Of a stretch of 64,000 nt of DNA, positions 3,324 through 63,259 are shown in pieces (position 1 is the first letter of the stretch; each line of letters begins with the position of its first letter). The stretch is from a virus (taxonomy: Duplodnaviria > Heunggongvirae > Uroviricota > Caudoviricetes). The notes under the pieces were generated by a model. That model searched no databases. It saw only the letters and a list, made by a program, of their open reading frames with translations, and had not been told where the DNA came from. The position numbers and the translations under genes are program-made. The DNA lies in IMG/VR virus record IMGVR_UViG_2737471844_000002, positions 10,565 to 74,564 of that record. One strand, 5' to 3'.

Positions 3324-3942
3324 AGTTAACTATCAGGCACTGCGTGAGGTGGCAGAGGCCGCGAAGGGGGATACGACGTGGCAGAACCTACAGGCTTTTC
3401 ATGCTGCGGCTACGCCGGAGGTTGTGCAGGCGTTGCTGGATGAAAACGAAAGACTGTGTCGAGATCTGATAGCTCGTAATGGTGAGATTGAAGGGCTTCG
3501 GGAGTGGGCAGAAGAACTGGAGGCACGGGAGGTGGCTTTGCCAGTAGCGTCATGCATTGTTGAAGATGGATGCATGTGTGTTGATGGGTTCAGTGAGTAT
3601 GTAGGTCACTCGCTGCCTGATGGAATGCATGAGCTTTATGCTGCCCCGCCAGCGCCCGTAGTGCCTGCATCACTGGAATCAGAGCCGGTGGCGTGGACTG
3701 ATGAAGAGGAACTGCGCGATGTCAAGCAGTATGGTCTCGGTGAGATATTTCAGTACCCGCCAGATAAATACGCAGACTCGCGTCGTGTAATCCCGCTGTA
3801 TCGCGAGCTGCCAGTGCCGGTAGTGCCGGATGAAATGTATTGGCAGGATGCGCCAGTTGAAGGCAGCAGCAAAGCTGCTGCATACGCTACAGGTTGGAAC
3901 GCTTGCCGCGCTGCCATGTTTAAAGGAAAAGGAGGTGCGTAA
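3316..3942 (+). CDS. hypothetical phage protein
   Basis: 208-aa ORF overlapping upstream stop; no recognisable domain. Confidence 0.4.
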   Translation: MSEVNYQALREVAEAAKGDTTWQNLQAFHAAATPEVVQALLDENERLCRDLIARNGEIEGLREWAEELEAREVALPVASCIVEDGCMCVDGFSEYVGHSLPDGMHELYAAPPAPVVPASLESEPVAWTDEEELRDVKQYGLGEIFQYPPDKYADSRRVIPLYRELPVPVVPDEMYWQDAPVEGSSKAAAYATGWNACRAAMFKGKGGA

Positions 3943-4312
3943 TGCGTGTCGCGTTTATCGGTTTATTACCATACCCGACTCGTTTTTGGGCTTCTGCGTT
4001 AATGACAAAGCCGCATGTCCTGATGGCTGACAGCATCATCCCTGCACCGAAACGCCGTACAGGCATTGCGGCGGCGAGACGAGCAGCAAAGAAACGCAGG
4101 AGAACAAAACGATGAAAAACCGTAAGGCAAAAATTCTGTTAGCTCGCAGAAACGGTGTTGGGGTCTGGCGATGGTTGAGGATTAGTAACAGACGAGTGAG
4201 GTTGACGGGGTGTTGCGGGGTGATGTTGTACAGCTGTTGCAAAAAGCCCAGCGCGGCGCAAAACCGCTGGAAGAATCACACTAACGCAAAGTAATTAAAT
4301 AATAACCAATAA

Positions 4313-4359
4313 CAGACCAAAACATATGTTTTGGTCTGCCAAAAGTGATGTTTTGGTCA
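4313..4359. promoter_or_regulatory. palindrome cluster (candidate operator)
   Basis: 26-bp perfect palindrome cagaccaaaacatatgttttggtctg at 4313-4338, followed by a further ccaaaag...ttttggtc inverted pair; four TTTTGGTC-like half sites in alternating orientation. Confidence 0.35.
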
Positions 4360-4361
4360 TT

Positions 4362-4640
4362 ATGAAGATTGAACAAATCGGAATGGCAGCTTTCAGGCAA
4401 CAGGCTGAAAGCGGTGGCGTGGATGAGTTCGTCGTGCAGCGGTTCAGTGGTGTGTATCACCTCTTCGCTGTGAATCGCCGCGCCGGGGTGTCCTATTTTC
4501 TACAGGAACGCCGTGGCGATTACAAGACGTGGCTGTCTCTTGACCGTGCCGCCGCGTTCCTGTCAGGGATTGGCGTTTCACGTTTTACCGTGCGTTTTGA
4601 GGATAATAAACATGCTGAAAAAGATGATCGGGGCCATTAA
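4362..4640 (+). CDS. hypothetical protein
   Basis: Internal ATG 4362 (MKIEQIG...) of track ORF 4326-4640; lies directly downstream of the palindrome cluster. Confidence 0.3.
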   Translation: MKIEQIGMAAFRQQAESGGVDEFVVQRFSGVYHLFAVNRRAGVSYFLQERRGDYKTWLSLDRAAAFLSGIGVSRFTVRFEDNKHAEKDDRGH

Positions 4641-5010
4641 AGCCGGTCAGGCGTATCTGGGGTGGGATGATGCCCTTTATCGCCAGACGCTGGCCCGCCT
4701 GACAGGTAAAACAAGCACCACACGCTGCAACCTCGATGAACTGCGCATCATCCGGGAATACATGCACGAACAGGGATTTCCGCGCAAAGCGCCCGCCGGT
4801 AAAGGTCGCCGCCCCCGTGTTGCAATGAGCAGAAAATCAGTATTATCCAAAATTGAAGCGTTGCTGGCTGATGCCGGTCGTTCCTGGGTGTATGCGGAAG
4901 GACTGGCATCTCACATGTATAAGCAACATGTGATCGAATGGCTGACAGATGATCAGCTGTTTGGGGTGATGGTGGCGCTGGTAAAAGATTCAAGAAGGAG
5001 AAATCAATGA
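4612..5010 (+). CDS. GemA-like (Mu gp16-like) regulatory protein
   Basis: ATG 4612 with gagga SD-like sequence upstream; 132-aa product resembles the Mu GemA/DUF1018 family (from memory). Confidence 0.5.
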   Translation: MLKKMIGAIKAGQAYLGWDDALYRQTLARLTGKTSTTRCNLDELRIIREYMHEQGFPRKAPAGKGRRPRVAMSRKSVLSKIEALLADAGRSWVYAEGLASHMYKQHVIEWLTDDQLFGVMVALVKDSRRRNQ

Positions 5011-5510
5011 TGAAAAAATGGTTGTTTTGTTTAGTAGGGGTTATTTTATCTTTTCCTGCAGCGGCTGAATGGTACGCAGGTGTACAGGAAGATGCATTCA
5101 ACGAACAAAAAACAGCTATGCTGGTTGAGTTAGATAATGGTCGCTTTGGTGTTGTTTTTGATTGCAACAGTGATGGTTTATTCGTATCAGTTGTAGAAAA
5201 ATCAAAGAAAACTGAAAGTGTAACCAAAGAGCTTCCCGTTGATCTAATTTTCAGGATAGATAACCACCCAGCAGTGAAAATGACTGGGGTATTTACACGA
5301 CGAAATGAAAATTTGTACGGGTATAGATCGGATGATGCCAGTAGCATCAAGGAATTGTTATCTTACTTACGTAAAGCAAATGATCGTATTTTAGCCGGTG
5401 CTAAATTTTCTGATGAAAAAAGAGGGATATCGTTTGATATCACGCCAATCGGCTCCACATCAGGTGTTAATAAATTCATCAAAGCCTGTAACATCACGAT
5501 TCCAGAGTAA
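5007..5510 (+). CDS. secreted protein of unknown function (moron)
   Basis: 167-aa ORF with a signal-peptide-like N-terminus (MMKKWLFCLVGVILSFPAAAEW); visibly AT-rich relative to flanking genes; followed by its own terminator. Confidence 0.55.
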   Translation: MMKKWLFCLVGVILSFPAAAEWYAGVQEDAFNEQKTAMLVELDNGRFGVVFDCNSDGLFVSVVEKSKKTESVTKELPVDLIFRIDNHPAVKMTGVFTRRNENLYGYRSDDASSIKELLSYLRKANDRILAGAKFSDEKRGISFDITPIGSTSGVNKFIKACNITIPE

Positions 5511-5520
5511 CCTAATAGCC

Positions 5521-5547
5521 GCCCCTGCCATGCAGGGGCTTTTTTTG
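5521..5547 (+). terminator. rho-independent terminator
   Basis: gcccctgcc atg caggggc hairpin followed by a run of seven T. Confidence 0.6.
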
Positions 5548-5552
5548 TGGTC

Positions 5553-5580
5553 TGTACAGGCGATCATGTATGGCTATAAT
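5553..5580 (+). promoter_or_regulatory. candidate sigma-70 promoter upstream of mor-like gene
   Basis: tgtaca (5553-5558), 16-nt spacer, tataat (5575-5580); about 30 nt upstream of ATG 5610. Confidence 0.3.
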
Positions 5581-5609
5581 AACAGTAAGTTACTACCGGA
5601 GACGCCATC

Positions 5610-6077
5610 ATGCAGACCTTCAGTGAAACAGATCTTCGCGATGCACAGGCACTGCTACCCGATTCCGTGCAGCAACTGATTAGCGTGATTGGCTTCCCCG
5701 CCCTGACCCGGTTAATCCGTTCTTTTGGTGGCGTGACGTTAAGCGGTAAAACCGGCGCACACGCCGAACGCACCGGCGGTGTCCATGCCCTGTTACATGA
5801 CGTGCTGACCGAAGACGAAATCAACAAACTGATCCGCTTTCTTGGCGGTGCGCCGTTTTATATTCCCCGTTGCGATCATGCGTTACGTGCCCTGCGTAAC
5901 TCCCGTTTTATGGCTGATTTACAGCAACATATAAAAGGCGGATGCTCACACCGGCAGGCGCTGGCACTGCTTTGTCCACGTTACGGAATTTCAGACCGGT
6001 ACGCATGGCAACTGATACACCGACGACAAAAACAGACTTCGCTGAAAAGCCCCACCCAGGTGGGGCTTTTTGATTAA
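5610..6077 (+). CDS. Mor/C-family transcriptional activator
   Basis: 155-aa ORF; product resembles the Mu Mor / C late-activator family with a C-terminal HTH-like region (from memory). Confidence 0.55.
   Translation: MQTFSETDLRDAQALLPDSVQQLISVIGFPALTRLIRSFGGVTLSGKTGAHAERTGGVHALLHDVLTEDEINKLIRFLGGAPFYIPRCDHALRALRNSRFMADLQQHIKGGCSHRQALALLCPRYGISDRYAWQLIHRRQKQTSLKSPTQVGLFD
6048..6072 (+). terminator. rho-independent terminator overlapping the mor-like stop
   Basis: agccccacc cagg tggggct hairpin followed by ttttt; overlaps the last codons of the ORF. Confidence 0.45.
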
Positions 6078-6102
6078 TGGGCCTCAGAAAAAGGAGACAC
6101 TT

Positions 6103-6381
6103 ATGACCAACTATACGGCCCTTGCCGAGTATACGGCCTACTCAGAGCAGGCCCGGGATGCTGCCGGACGCCGCTTCGCTTATATGAAAAATCTGTCCAG
6201 CCAGCTAAACCGAATGGCCGAACAACCGGATATGATTGTTCATGAAGAAGCGTTGCAGTGTGCCATTGCTGATATTATCGCCAGTGAAAACGAGATGCGA
6301 GCCGCTCTGGAAAAAGCAAACGCCTCTGCTCCGCTTTGCAATAAACCTCTTATTACGCCGGATTCCCTTTCCCGCTTCTGA
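6103..6381 (+). CDS. hypothetical protein
   Basis: ATG 6103 (MTNYTALAEY...) within track ORF 6070-6381; no recognisable domain. Confidence 0.3.
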   Translation: MTNYTALAEYTAYSEQARDAAGRRFAYMKNLSSQLNRMAEQPDMIVHEEALQCAIADIIASENEMRAALEKANASAPLCNKPLITPDSLSRF

Positions 6382-6403
6382 TTTATCACCCCGCCACGGT
6401 GGG

Positions 6404-6427
6404 GTGCTGAACTCCCCCAGCAGTACC
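6404..6427 (+). promoter_or_regulatory. conserved late-operon element, copy 1 (upstream of lysis genes)
   Basis: gtgctgaactcccccagcagtacc; shares the GTGCTGAACWCCCYC core with copies at 14500 and 26443; preceded by the dyad ccccgccacggtgggg. Confidence 0.45.
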
Positions 6428-6500
6428 TGCCACTCCATACCGCCTATCCTGTCCACTCAGTCTGTAAAACACGCAGGGATAACACTCACAGGAGAATTTC

Positions 6501-9403: not shown

Positions 9404-11044
9404 GTGGCAAAACGTAAACTTTCCATTAAAGAGTTTCAGAGAAGCCTGCAGGAGTACATCGCCAACCTCCGCCAGACCATCGAGGCTGAATGTCTGGGGT
9501 TCGATGTTAACCCGCAGGCCACACAGGCCCGCCGGGCGGCAGTCTGCGACCCGGTGACGGGCTACGATTATTTTGTCGAAAACTATTTTCCGCACTATGT
9601 CCGCAACCCGGCAAAAAGTGAGCTGCATAAATACCTGTTCAGCCGTCTGCCACAGGTTGTGGCAAGCCCGGACCCGGAGAACGACGCCATCGCCGCGCCC
9701 CGTGGTGAAGCAAAATCCACGCTGGTGACGCAGCTGTTTACCCTGTGGAACATTATCCGGGCCATTAAGCATTACCCGGTCATCATTATGGACAGTATCG
9801 ACCAGGCTTATCCGATGCTGGAAGCCATTAAGGCTGAACTGGAATTTAACCCCCGTTTAAAAAACGATTTCCCGGAAGTGTGCGGACAGGGCCGTGTCTG
9901 GCGTATGGGGACCATCGTCACGGCCAACAATATCAAGGTAACCGTTGCCGGTAGTGGTAAAAAACTGCGTGGTCTGCGCCACGGCCCGTACCGTCCTGAC
10001 CTGGTCATCCTCGACGACATCGAGAACGACGAGATGGTGCGTAACCCGGAGCAGCGCGACAAGCTGCATGACTGGCTCACCAGAACCGTGATGCCGCTGG
10101 GCGAGGCTGGCGGTAAAACCGATATTATTTATATCGGAACCATCCTGCATTACGACTCCGTGCTGTCGCGCACACTCAATAACCCGATGTGGAAAACGGC
10201 CCGCTTTAAGGCGGTCATTCAGTGGCCTGCCAACATGAAGCTGTGGGACGAGTGGGAAGAACTCATCCGCAACAAACAGCCAGAAGCGGCGGAGGCACTT
10301 TATCAGCAGAACGAAGCCGACATGCTCGCCGGGTCGGTGGTGTCATGGGCGGCGCGCCCACTGCTGGCGCTGATGAAAATCCGTGTCCGTGACGGTCACG
10401 ACACCTTTGATTCTGAATACCAGAACGACCCGGTCAGCGGTGAAGATGCGCTGTTTGCGGGCTGCATTAAGTTCTGGGTTAACCGTCTTGATGAATGGGT
10501 GTTTTATGGTGCTGTTGACCCCAGTCTCGGGAAGAAGAATAAAAACCGCGACCCGTCGGCCATTCTCGTGGGGGGCTTTAACCGTTTTACCGGCATTCTG
10601 GATGTGGTTGAAGCCGATATCCGCCGACGTCTGCCAAACAAACTTATCGAAGACGTGATTAAGTATCAGCGGGAATACCACTGTCTGTGCTGGTCGTTTG
10701 AGTCCGTCCAGTTTCAGGAGTTTCTGCGTACCGTGCTGGTTGAGCGTTCGGCGGCGCTGGGCGTGCCGGTTCCGGCGCTGCCGGTCATCCCGCTGGAGGA
10801 TAAGGCGCTGCGCATTGAGTCCCTTCAGCCGCATATGGCCAACGGCCTGATTCGTATCAGCCACACACATCAGACGCTGATTGACCAGCTGCGCCACTAC
10901 CCCAAAGCCGACCACGATGATGGCCCGGACTGTCTGCACATGCTGTGGACGCTGGCGGTATCGCGCAGCGCAAAATTTCAGATTCACACCCCACGCAGCA
11001 CCGGGCGTGACCGTGGCGGGCGTTTTGGTTCAGGAGGATGGTAA
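9404..11044 (+). CDS. terminase large subunit (Mu gp28-like)
   Basis: Large ORF; GTG 9404 chosen because it follows the MTase stop (the track ATG at 9347 overlaps the MTase); Mu-type terminase sequence character. Confidence 0.8.
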   Translation: MAKRKLSIKEFQRSLQEYIANLRQTIEAECLGFDVNPQATQARRAAVCDPVTGYDYFVENYFPHYVRNPAKSELHKYLFSRLPQVVASPDPENDAIAAPRGEAKSTLVTQLFTLWNIIRAIKHYPVIIMDSIDQAYPMLEAIKAELEFNPRLKNDFPEVCGQGRVWRMGTIVTANNIKVTVAGSGKKLRGLRHGPYRPDLVILDDIENDEMVRNPEQRDKLHDWLTRTVMPLGEAGGKTDIIYIGTILHYDSVLSRTLNNPMWKTARFKAVIQWPANMKLWDEWEELIRNKQPEAAEALYQQNEADMLAGSVVSWAARPLLALMKIRVRDGHDTFDSEYQNDPVSGEDALFAGCIKFWVNRLDEWVFYGAVDPSLGKKNKNRDPSAILVGGFNRFTGILDVVEADIRRRLPNKLIEDVIKYQREYHCLCWSFESVQFQEFLRTVLVERSAALGVPVPALPVIPLEDKALRIESLQPHMANGLIRISHTHQTLIDQLRHYPKADHDDGPDCLHMLWTLAVSRSAKFQIHTPRSTGRDRGGRFGSGGW

Positions 11045-14344: not shown

Positions 14345-14499
14345 ATGGCCAGAAACGCGCTGTAATCGCCTTTGACGACATAAACGCCTCACGGATGAGG
14401 CATTACAGCACCGCACCCCATAAATGCCGTCAGAATCGTTTTTAAAAGGGTTTTAAAAACGGTTTTATTTCCCCTTTTATCCTTTCGCGTTATGGCAGG

Positions 14500-36079: not shown

Positions 36080-36122
36080 CATCAGGGCGTATTCGCCCTG
36101 CCACCAATCCCATAACATAAAG

Positions 36123-36152
36123 AACGGGGTGCAAATCACTATGCACCCCGTT
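36123..36152. promoter_or_regulatory. 11-bp perfect inverted repeat
   Basis: aacggggtgca, 8-nt loop, tgcaccccgtt; in the AT-rich gap between parR and the ATPase gene; no T-run follows on the plus strand. Confidence 0.3.
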
Positions 36153-36457
36153 CCAATACAAACCATCAGAAGATCTACACATCTTTCTCAAATGGCCAAG
36201 TAATCGAGCTGGTTCAGGAATAAGCAGGCTGCCAACACAAGTGAAGGAGATAAAACTGTAGAACTGATCAATCGTTGGAAACAAGTATTGACAGTATGTT
36301 CGAGTAACCCAACTGGATAGATTTTATGCTGATTATCCATACAGTAAAAAAGTGAGGATACTCTTTGAATTACGCCAGCAAGAGTGGTAACATTAGTCAA
36401 TGATTTTCATTAATGTAGTTACCAGCTTACACAAGCTGATGTTTTATTGGGGGTTTT

Positions 36458-40193: not shown

Positions 40194-40222
40194 GCCGGGG
40201 CATAAATTTTTTATGCCCCGGC
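40194..40222 (-). terminator. hairpin downstream of Q (possible terminator)
   Basis: gccggggcata aatttttt atgccccggc inverted repeat about 25 nt beyond the Q stop. Confidence 0.35.
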
Positions 40223-62593: not shown

Positions 62594-63259
62594 ATGAATA
62601 TGCAAATTTTTATCGCACCAGCAGCCACAGTTGCTGCAGTCTGCCTTGCTGCATATTTTGCTTTACGAAATGAACGTAAAAAGAAAGCACTTGAGATTAG
62701 AACAACTCAACTAGATCGAATATCAGAGCTAGTAAACCGAGCATCTACCAATTTGATGCAATATACAGGTACTCTTGCCTCTATACTGGAAGCGCACGCC
62801 AAAGATAATTATCTACCGAACAAAAAATTTGACATTAATGTAATTAGCAAATGGAAAGATTGCCTCGATGAGAGTGAGGTCTGGGCGATTGATAGACAGC
62901 AACTAAGAACATGTCAGCACAGTCTGGAGTTTCATCGTGAAAAAGAATGGGCTGAATGGAAAAAAATAATTCCACCATTACTTGATAAAATTGACCAATT
63001 TTTTCTCATATCTAAGCCAGGGCAACCTGTTACGTTTATAAATGGCCAAAACAAAACAGCTGATGAACTACTTGTTTTCTCAAGATATTTGAGAAAACAA
63101 ACAGCAGAAATTGAATCAGTACGTCAGCTGTTACTTTCTCAAATGAGAGAGGAATTCATCGAGTTAACTAGCTTTGAACCTGTCACAATGTTTAGCTTAT
63201 TTAAATCAATAAAGAAAAATGTCATGCAATTTTTCTGTATCAGTGCTCTTAAAAATTGA
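62594..63259 (+). CDS. membrane-anchored protein of unknown function (moron between D and ogr)
   Basis: 221-aa ORF; single N-terminal TM helix (IFIAPAATVAAVCLAAYFAL); strongly AT-rich; own terminator downstream. Confidence 0.5.
   Translation: MNMQIFIAPAATVAAVCLAAYFALRNERKKKALEIRTTQLDRISELVNRASTNLMQYTGTLASILEAHAKDNYLPNKKFDINVISKWKDCLDESEVWAIDRQQLRTCQHSLEFHREKEWAEWKKIIPPLLDKIDQFFLISKPGQPVTFINGQNKTADELLVFSRYLRKQTAEIESVRQLLLSQMREEFIELTSFEPVTMFSLFKSIKKNVMQFFCISALKN

Follow-up and report, generated by a model that had tools for sequence, protein, structure and literature searches.

We analyzed a 64,000-nucleotide stretch of viral DNA (hereafter, the window; positions 10,565 to 74,564 of the IMG/VR record IMGVR_UViG_2737471844_000002, Caudoviricetes) and, in it, two adjoining inverted repeats, dyad 1 and dyad 2, that together form an element immediately upstream of an open reading frame (ORF) for a 92-aa protein. 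The setting is the early ("semi-essential") part of a Mu-like prophage, where all genes lie on the plus strand. Before the element, the gene order is DUF3164, an ANR-family regulator, DUF2786, an Ead/Ea22-like gene, and two small ORFs; after it come the 92-aa ORF, the gene for GemA, an ORF of 167 aa, a terminator-like hairpin, a promoter-like site, and the gene for Mor (5610–6077). The features of the locus, in window coordinates, are the following:

4112–4294, plus strand: upstream ORF of 60 aa (phrog_1380, E 3e-29), which belongs to another mosaic module and marks the left boundary
4298–4312, plus strand: AT-rich leader AATAATAACCAATAA, which travels together with the element and carries the −10-like box AATAAT (4298–4303)
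4313–4338, strand-neutral: dyad 1, a perfect 26-bp palindrome with 13-nt arms, CAGACCAAAACAT and ATGTTTTGGTCTG, and a spacer of 0
4337–4358, strand-neutral: dyad 2, TGCCAAAA-GTGATG-TTTTGGTC, an imperfect copy of dyad 1 in an 8-N6-8 arrangement
4362–4640, plus strand: 92-aa ORF (MKIEQIGM...; phrog_7844), the constant partner of the element
4612–5010, plus strand: GemA-like gene (Pfam PF06252, E 9e-18), overlapping the 3' end of the 92-aa ORF
5521–5539, plus strand: strong intrinsic-terminator-like hairpin, GCCCCTGC...GCAGGGGC followed by seven T, just before the Mor gene

Structure of the twin repeats and chance expectation

Direct reading of positions 4313–4338 gives c-agaccaaaacat joined to atgttttggtct-g, and a repeat search returns the same 13-nt arms without a spacer; the perfect 26-bp palindrome claimed by an earlier model-made note on this DNA (hereafter, the sequence-only reading) is thus borne out. 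The core of dyad 1 (4315–4336) is GACCAAAA-CATATG-TTTTGGTC, also 8-N6-8, and both the starts and the centers of the two dyads are 22 bp apart. Accordingly, CCAAAAGTGATGTTTTGGTC (4339–4358) is a 20-nt direct-repeat copy of 4317–4336, 85% identical to it, with a start-to-start distance of 22 nt. The octamer TTTTGGTC is found in three exact copies, at 4315–4322 (minus strand), 4329–4336 (plus strand), and 4351–4358 (plus strand), and TTTTGGCA, which is TGCCAAAA at 4337–4344 read as its reverse complement, adds a fourth half-site, so that the earlier count of four such half-sites is correct. A/T tracts within the twin dyads occupy 4319–22, 4329–32, 4341–44, and 4351–54. Inverted half-sites, a fixed spacer, and a repeat at integral helical turns agree with an operator-type geometry. 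It should be noted that the ATG in the center of dyad 1 does not open an N-terminally extended ORF or a leader mini-ORF: its frame shifts among haplotypes, and the ATG is missing in strain E2348/69 (AGTATT) and in L036 (CATACG; here and below, L with a number denotes an individual locus).

The octamer as such shows no enrichment in the window (3 copies versus 2.9 expected), and all three occurrences fall inside 44 bp. Allowing up to three mismatches, the arrangement GACCAAAA-N6-TTTTGGTC is present at just these two adjoining places, with 0.41 expected, and two or more such dyads anywhere were obtained in 4 of 100 shuffles of the window. A perfect 13-nt arm with a loop of up to 8 nt appeared in 3 of 60 first-order Markov randomizations. 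The sequence-only reading considered the palindrome unlikely to be due to chance; taken alone, it is moderately improbable, and we regard the element as non-random because of the adjoining second copy and the conservation data given below. A dispersed repeat (a repetitive extragenic palindrome or bacterial interspersed mosaic element, REP/BIME-like; a miniature inverted-repeat transposable element; or a stoperator-type site) was rejected, as there is one locus in the window and a median of one place per E. coli genome.

A scan of IMG/VR for GACCAAAA-N6-TTTTGGTC returned sibling prophages, single chance matches, one unrelated high-GC contig, and nothing else. The analogous scan for the dyad type of the distant homologue L024, ACCAAAT-N6-ATTTGGT, gave chance matches among the matches listed. 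The unrelated contig, IMGVR_UViG_3300035661_000038 (81,955 bp, high G+C), carries at least 17 near-identical palindromes of 22–26 bp spread genome-wide (loci L065, L067, L069, L072, L073, L087, L089, L093, and L096), with the form (GAC)GACCAAAA[A/G]G[C/T][G/A]CCTTTTGGTC(GTC) and a half-site that coincides with that of the twin dyads; this array looks like a genome-wide regulatory or terminator repeat. The window has further long perfect hairpins at 40194–40222, 36122–36153, 63072–63100, and 14437–14461.

Conservation and linkage to the 92-aa gene

Variability was determined for 17 different haplotypes of the E. coli type, and the core arms were surveyed in 24 haplotypes. Among the 17, variable columns make up 3 of 34 in the arms versus 7 of 12 in the 6-nt centers; the corresponding figures for the 92-aa ORF are 49 of 93 third codon positions and 20 of 186 first and second positions. 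The arms differ significantly both from the third positions (Fisher test, p = 4e-6) and from the centers (p = 0.001). The core arms CCAAAA/TTTTGG show zero variation in the 24 haplotypes, whereas seven kinds of center are found in dyad 1 (CATATG, CATGTG, CATGTT, TATATG, CATGTA, CATACG, and AGTATT) and six kinds in dyad 2 (GTGATG, GTAGTG, GTAATG, GCGATG, GCAATG, and ATGATG). Changes near the arms are A4316G (in two backgrounds), C4323T, and the paired C4323A and G4328T of E2348/69; in L023, the double substitution TC > CA at 4357–4358 produces the right arm TTTTGGCA and turns dyad 2 into a perfect 8-N6-8 palindrome. The center length is constant in every intact copy, the sole indel being the loss of 1 nt in L032, where the 92-aa gene carries a frameshift.

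The sequence-only reading had named an absence of conservation in related elements as the outcome that would count against it; what we found is the opposite, i.e., invariant arms, freely evolving centers, and fixed spacing. Because the arms are invariant while the 6-nt centers are free and the spacing is fixed, the element is considered functional; judged by sequence comparison, purifying selection maintains it as a feature that acts in cis for the 92-aa gene. Inside the 92-aa ORF, the stretch 4500–4528 likewise shows 28 nt without variation in the 17 haplotypes, nine synonymous positions included, and overlaps an arm of a 16-nt, 88%-complementary inverted repeat (4502–4517 / 4548–4563); it may be a second embedded element, or the RRGDYKTW motif may simply constrain the codons here.

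Of 5,426 complete E. coli genomes, 58 (60 places) contain the element, and the same 58 have the 92-aa gene and this type of gemA; one of them is enteropathogenic E. coli (EPEC) E2348/69. All three are also present in about 20 contigs of IMG/VR and in 7 from metagenomes. Every copy directly precedes the 92-aa gene, and the element was found nowhere apart from that gene. The protein family comprises 13 clusters, all from Mu-like prophages of Enterobacterales. Isolated-phage records contain neither the gene nor the element (the matches in phage collections all end at window 4279), and both are absent from phage Mu. Prophages of Salmonella, Citrobacter koseri, and Serratia that have gemA and lack the 92-aa gene also lack the element before gemA; therefore, the element is tied to the 92-aa gene, and not to gemA. 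The location given by the sequence-only reading, just upstream of the ORF at 4362 and about 250 bp before the GemA-like gene, is confirmed (the latter starts at 4612, 253 nt downstream), and the Mu-like early context is right as well. A GemA autoregulation site is disfavored for the same reason: GemA proteins of 64–76% identity without the 92-aa gene have neither dyads nor any palindrome of at least 6 bp before gemA.

Distant homologues with 55–76% amino acid identity to the 92-aa protein are represented by L024, L025, L006, L030, L028, and L007, and no lineage beyond these six was recovered in protein and alignment scans of genome, metagenome, and viral contigs. Four of them (L024, L025, L006, and L030, 62–76% identity) have CCAAA[A/T]-N..-[A/T]TTGG twice, with a 22-nt period in a gapless 44-nt frame, and a gapless alignment of 48 columns could be made for 17 sequences from all lineages except L007. 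The symmetry of dyad 1 survives two-sided changes (4 pairs; covariation of 0.145 versus 0.075 in shuffled alignments, with 0 of 500 shuffles as high); under a nested-pairing model, the covariation is 0.114 versus 0.084 in shuffles. No covariation is seen in dyad 2, where 5 of 17 sequences have broken inner pairs; this dyad keeps the left arm and the outer TGG, while the inner positions of the right arm drift to a GGA-containing, Shine-Dalgarno-like sequence. In L024, L025, and L028, the stop codon (TAA) of the upstream ORF falls in the center of dyad 2. The chromosome of Leminorella grimontii (CP146357.1) carries two related Mu-like prophages (L028 and L029), both of which have, between the 80-aa homologue and gemA, two intervening ORFs, one of them for an HNH endonuclease.

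Module boundary, expression, and the 92-aa product

Sibling Mu-like prophages have at least four unrelated sequences upstream of the element, and their mutual homology restarts 0–15 nt before the palindrome (~4299–4313). Since homology restarts at the palindrome among unrelated upstream types, the element belongs to the module headed by the 92-aa gene. The start codon ATG4362 lies 3 nt past dyad 2 and has no recognizable Shine-Dalgarno sequence. On the other side, the hairpin at 5521–5539 would end the unit of the 92-aa ORF, gemA, and the 167-aa ORF.

Several observations concern the flanks of this module. The similarity to Shiga toxin (Stx) phages, phiV10, and P1-like phages stops at window 4279. 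The segment to its left, 3928–4279, which covers the two small ORFs past the Ead/Ea22-like gene, is 76–90% identical to Stx1/Stx2-converting lambdoid phages, phiV10, RCS47, and P1-like phages; by this pattern of similarity, transposable, lambdoid, and P1-type phages exchange it as a module. Within the region, the best-matching sigma-70-like site is TGTACA-16-TATAAT (5553–5580, 10/12), located right after the terminator-like hairpin and upstream of the Mor gene; mor seems to be set apart from the early/gem unit with its own promoter in this phage, unlike in Mu. The 3' end of the Mor gene (6045–6070) contains a palindrome with 12-bp arms, AAAAGCCCCACC-CA-GGTGGGGCTTTT, between A and T runs, which looks like a bidirectional terminator. 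A plasmid-type centromere or a set of iterons was rejected for the twin dyads, because there are two units only and no ParA or ParB nearby.

Promoter-like signals around the element are weak. In the window, ATCACA (4275–4280) and AATAAT (4298–4303), separated by 17 nt, give a 9/12 match that ends 10 nt before dyad 1. Most upstream types have an xATAAT-like box 8–11 nt before the palindrome, with no conserved −35 box; the scan places a promoter match at a non-conserved position in L010 and finds none in L009. Among the distant homologues, L030 has a terminator-like hairpin followed by TTAACC-16-TATATT overlapping dyad 1, and in L007 the inverted repeats are preceded, at 7 nt, by a perfect TATAAT without a −35 box. 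A Mor/C-dependent middle or late promoter, which lacks a −35 box, has its activator dyad centered near −43, and shares that dyad with several late promoters, was rejected, as the window holds no other copy of the dyad and the −10-like boxes are upstream of the dyads, not downstream.

Published data indicate expression of the module and provide, in favor of an operator, a precedent for a gem unit that is expressed on its own. The gem operon of Mu was reported to be constitutively expressed in lysogens (Paolozzi and Ghelardini 1992, in the passage of PMC3820752 that cites it). Sequencing of Hfq-bound, ligated RNA pairs (RIL-seq) in lysogenic cultures of EPEC E2348/69 detected mRNA of a gemA homologue in 71 chimeras with the small RNA PasB (PMC8550237, table S3); this homologue, E2348C_2648, belongs to prophage PP9, which is the prophage that carries the element. 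Because the gemA homologue mRNA was captured by RIL-seq, mRNA of the module is present in lysogenic cultures. The PasB chimeras map to the 3' end of E2348C_2648 (NC_011601 2725604–2725688; window ~4920–5005), at the junction with the next gene, and PasB is encoded by prophage PP6, so that this is a cross-prophage interaction between a small RNA and an mRNA (PMC8550237). In E2348/69, the element is located at NC_011601 ~2,724,993–2,725,038; no mapped 5' or 3' ends near 2,724,97x–2,725,02x are contained in the supplements of PMC11481537, PMC8550237, and PMC10687069.

Fold comparison suggests that the 92-aa product resembles eL38 and the FtsH N-terminal domain. The NCBIfam model "ParC family partition-associated protein" gives weak and consistent matches in 10 of 10 family members (best E 3e-5), and the score of the 92-aa protein itself, 17.7 bits, is far under the cutoff of 95. 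ParC is a protein of unknown function from IncP-9 plasmids (PMC12421886). As for other candidate binders, a c repressor or Ner operator was rejected, as the left-end motifs of the sibling prophage L033 (E. coli 20KM0223N) differ from the element. The c/ner intergenic region of L033 (3390–3520) has three CGTACTTT[TG]G repeats and a perfect 9-N6-9 dyad, CCGATAATC-GAATTT-GATTATCGG, which are likely the repressor and Ner-type operators of this prophage family.

Interpretation and known systems

Most likely, the element is a control element of the 92-aa gene, an ordinary kind of feature. Our tentative first choice among specific explanations, short of real confidence, is that the dyads form a tandem operator, through which a dimeric DNA-binding protein would control the module of the 92-aa gene and gem. 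The two adjacent 8-N6-8 inverted repeats would act as one operator; as the centers are 22 bp apart, i.e., two helical turns, both sites would face the same side of the DNA. Binding would gate the module that begins 3 nt downstream and extends through the 92-aa ORF, gemA, and the 167-aa ORF to the terminator at 5521–5539; a weak promoter without a −35 box would lie just upstream. The selected property would then be protein binding to DNA. Autoregulation by the 92-aa product is the most economical guess, because the element is inherited only together with this gene; a host factor or another phage protein could also be the binder. The operator is favored because the half-site is used four times, the spacing is exact in intact copies, and the motif outlasts RNA stability.

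Several points weigh against an operator. The 92-aa product has no Pfam domain and no helix-turn-helix (HTH), ribbon-helix-helix (RHH), or other known DNA-binding fold; the module as a whole encodes no HTH, RHH, or AbrB-type regulator, and no cognate DNA-binding protein was found. The search for the motif elsewhere in the prophage, which the sequence-only reading had proposed, revealed no other copy with up to three mismatches in the rest of the 64-kb window, and the left-end control region of L033 has no CCAAAA-N6-TTTTGG match above chance. There is no robust promoter: the predictions are weak, their position is not conserved, no −35 box is conserved, and the scan fails in two upstream types. 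Furthermore, the site is located inside what is normally a single long early operon, and Leminorella (L028) retains an intact gene in two prophage copies next to decayed inner arms. It should be noted that the invariant arms, the free centers, and the two-sided changes of dyad 1 would be expected of a hairpin equally. The earlier alternative of a dimeric regulator site or a structured RNA element is therefore supported in part: the functional dyad pattern agrees with it, whereas neither a cognate protein, nor the motif elsewhere, nor a robust promoter was found, and the RNA fold is significant in the E. coli-type clade alone.

Since the site lies within a long early operon, it is transcribed, and its RNA will fold. 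In E. coli-type copies, the plus-strand RNA has a folding energy of −21.6 to −24.4 kcal/mol (z −3.7 to −4.5 versus shuffled sequences), with two isoenergetic conformers, tandem hairpins (−21.0 kcal/mol) and a nested long hairpin (−21.6 kcal/mol; 11-bp lower stem, 3x3 internal loop, 6-bp upper stem). The four arms could thus serve as an mRNA leader on the early polycistronic transcript, pairing 1:2 and 3:4 in the tandem form or 1:4 and 2:3 in the nested one, both of which bury 45 nt ending 3 nt before AUG4362; the fold would mask the start codon and hold down or gate translation, or else provide an RNase III-type processing or stability signal between cistrons. Taken jointly, these two roles are, in our opinion, the main rival of the operator, albeit a less probable one. 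Besides the significant fold, the pattern of substitutions is in accord with them: the sole in-stem substitution, A4316G, yields a G.U pair on the plus strand in both backgrounds, C4323T yields U.G, the paired change in E2348/69 is compensatory, and TC > CA in L023 adds two pairs to hairpin 2. The start codon without a Shine-Dalgarno sequence, the unusually high conservation of synonymous sites in the first 24 nt of the ORF, and the TAA inside the center of dyad 2 (L024, L025, and L028), a geometry fit for translational coupling by hairpin melting, also suit a leader, and the resemblance of the modeled fold of the adjacent 92-aa protein to rRNA-binding eL38 hints weakly at RNA binding. As none of the promoter predictions is convincing, the site would normally be transcribed from the early promoter. 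Conversely, the fold is insignificant in every distant homologue (L024, L006, L030, L007, and L028; no better than shuffled, z −1.2 to +0.5), where the motif and its exact spacing nonetheless persist, and the lack of covariation and the broken inner pairs of dyad 2 count against a leader as well. Two hairpins have no structural reason to share one common arm sequence; the loop length does not vary among intact copies; wobble-type changes are very few in 17 pairs, compared to ~55% variability of neutral sites; and Rfam has no match (the best, to an unrelated plastid family, is 19.5 bits against a gathering score of 55.8). A Rho-independent terminator on the plus strand is not indicated either, as neither hairpin is followed by a U-tract and the plus-strand scan is without a match.

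Read leftward, on the minus strand, the 13–14-bp hairpin with its U-rich tail UUAUUGGUUAUU might be an intrinsic terminator that halts antisense transcription from the right or ends a small antisense RNA over the 5' end of the 92-aa gene, which we consider improbable for both roles together. Folding is more stable on the minus strand (−28.5 kcal/mol, z −6.6), a consensus scan calls a minus-strand terminator in three upstream types (the window, L010, and L009), and a TAATCAA/TAACCAA box conserved on the plus strand just upstream joins the U-rich tail; however, there is no minus-strand promoter-like site in 4200–4800 or in 3500–6500, every gene in the region is on the plus strand, the tail has 3–5 U in its first 8 nt in most types, and dyad 2 with the selection on its arms is left unexplained. 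It is even more improbable that the 26-bp palindrome is supercoiling-sensitive DNA that is extruded as a cruciform or bends, linking expression of the gem module to superhelicity. The palindrome of the window is perfect, free of a spacer, and AT-rich in the center, with A4/T4 tracts phased by 10–12 bp, and GemA is linked to gyrase and supercoiling in the passages of PMC9769972 and PMC12407980 that cite Ghelardini 1994 and Abbes 2001; yet most sibling centers are not perfect palindromes (CATGTT, CATGTA, and CATACG) and, although costlier to extrude, are maintained, and the dyads of the distant homologues are poor. A broader and still doubtful version of these nucleic-acid explanations, to which we give somewhat more weight than to either of the last two, is that the twin dyads are a switch read as a structure, that is, a bistable RNA translational operator for the eL38-like/ParC-like protein, or a cruciform coupling the gem module to topology; if true, this would be the first molecular handle on the gem region and the first function for the ParC-like family. 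The least probable explanation is that the element has no function of its own, being either a 22-nt tandem duplication carried along passively by the 92-aa gene or the scar of a recombination event at a mosaic junction. It is positioned exactly at the mosaic boundary, its two units are direct repeats, and the Leminorella element has decayed next to an intact gene; nevertheless, the symmetry is kept by two-sided changes, and neutrality is incompatible with arms that are as conserved as non-synonymous positions while the centers evolve at the synonymous rate.

The gem region of Mu-like phages has been reported to alter the supercoiling, gene expression, and cell division of the host and to stay expressed in lysogens, and it is described as molecularly uncharacterised (PMC12407980); GemA is reported to lower gyrase activity. 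Against this background, the element would be a control site that is kept by selection, specific to its module, and placed where the gem region begins, in a prophage family found in about 1% of complete E. coli genomes, among them the model pathogen EPEC E2348/69. It could serve as bait for a pull-down of the regulator, as DNA or as RNA, and simple mutations could test switching of the 92-aa gene and gemA. If the binder is the adjacent ParC-like protein, this would be the first activity for a family conserved on IncP-9 plasmids; otherwise, the element is an ordinary operator-like site.

The candidate operator can be compared to known systems of several kinds. Tandem palindromic operators of small autoregulated genes include those of Aca1 (anti-CRISPR promoters of Mu-like Pseudomonas phages), phd/doc, mqsRA, and P22 Arc/Mnt. 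The Aca1, toxin-antitoxin, and Arc/Mnt operators resemble the element in having two adjacent repeats about two turns apart, conserved arms, and a co-inherited small gene downstream; unlike them, this module is without an HTH, RHH, or AbrB-type regulator, and no clear sigma-70 promoter lies over the dyads. The left-end operators of Mu-like phages (c O1–O3 and the Ner dyads) come from the same kind of phage, and the Ner-like site of the sibling prophage is also an N6 dyad (9-N6-9); the sequence of the element, however, is unrelated, and it is located ~8 kb into the early region, not between c and ner. RNA hairpins between cistrons that act as RNase III or stability signals are exemplified by the T7 R1–R5 sites in early mRNA and lambda sib, to which leader hairpins that mask a ribosome-binding site can be added. 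Similar to T7 R1–R5 and lambda sib, the nested conformer of the element stands between cistrons of a long early transcript, abutting a start codon; in contrast to RNase III substrates (typically ~20 bp), its stems are shorter and A-U rich, the fold is not conserved in distant homologues, and no Rfam family corresponds to it. Phage Mu itself (L005, 3195–3214) has an inverted repeat, GGCGGTG-TTGCAG-CACCGCC (7-N6-7), ~20 nt before gemA and beside the divergent gp15 gene. Like the element, this repeat belongs to a transposable phage and marks the entry into its gem region; unlike it, the Mu repeat is unrelated in sequence, GC-rich, and present in a single copy directly before gemA, with no homologue of the 92-aa protein there.

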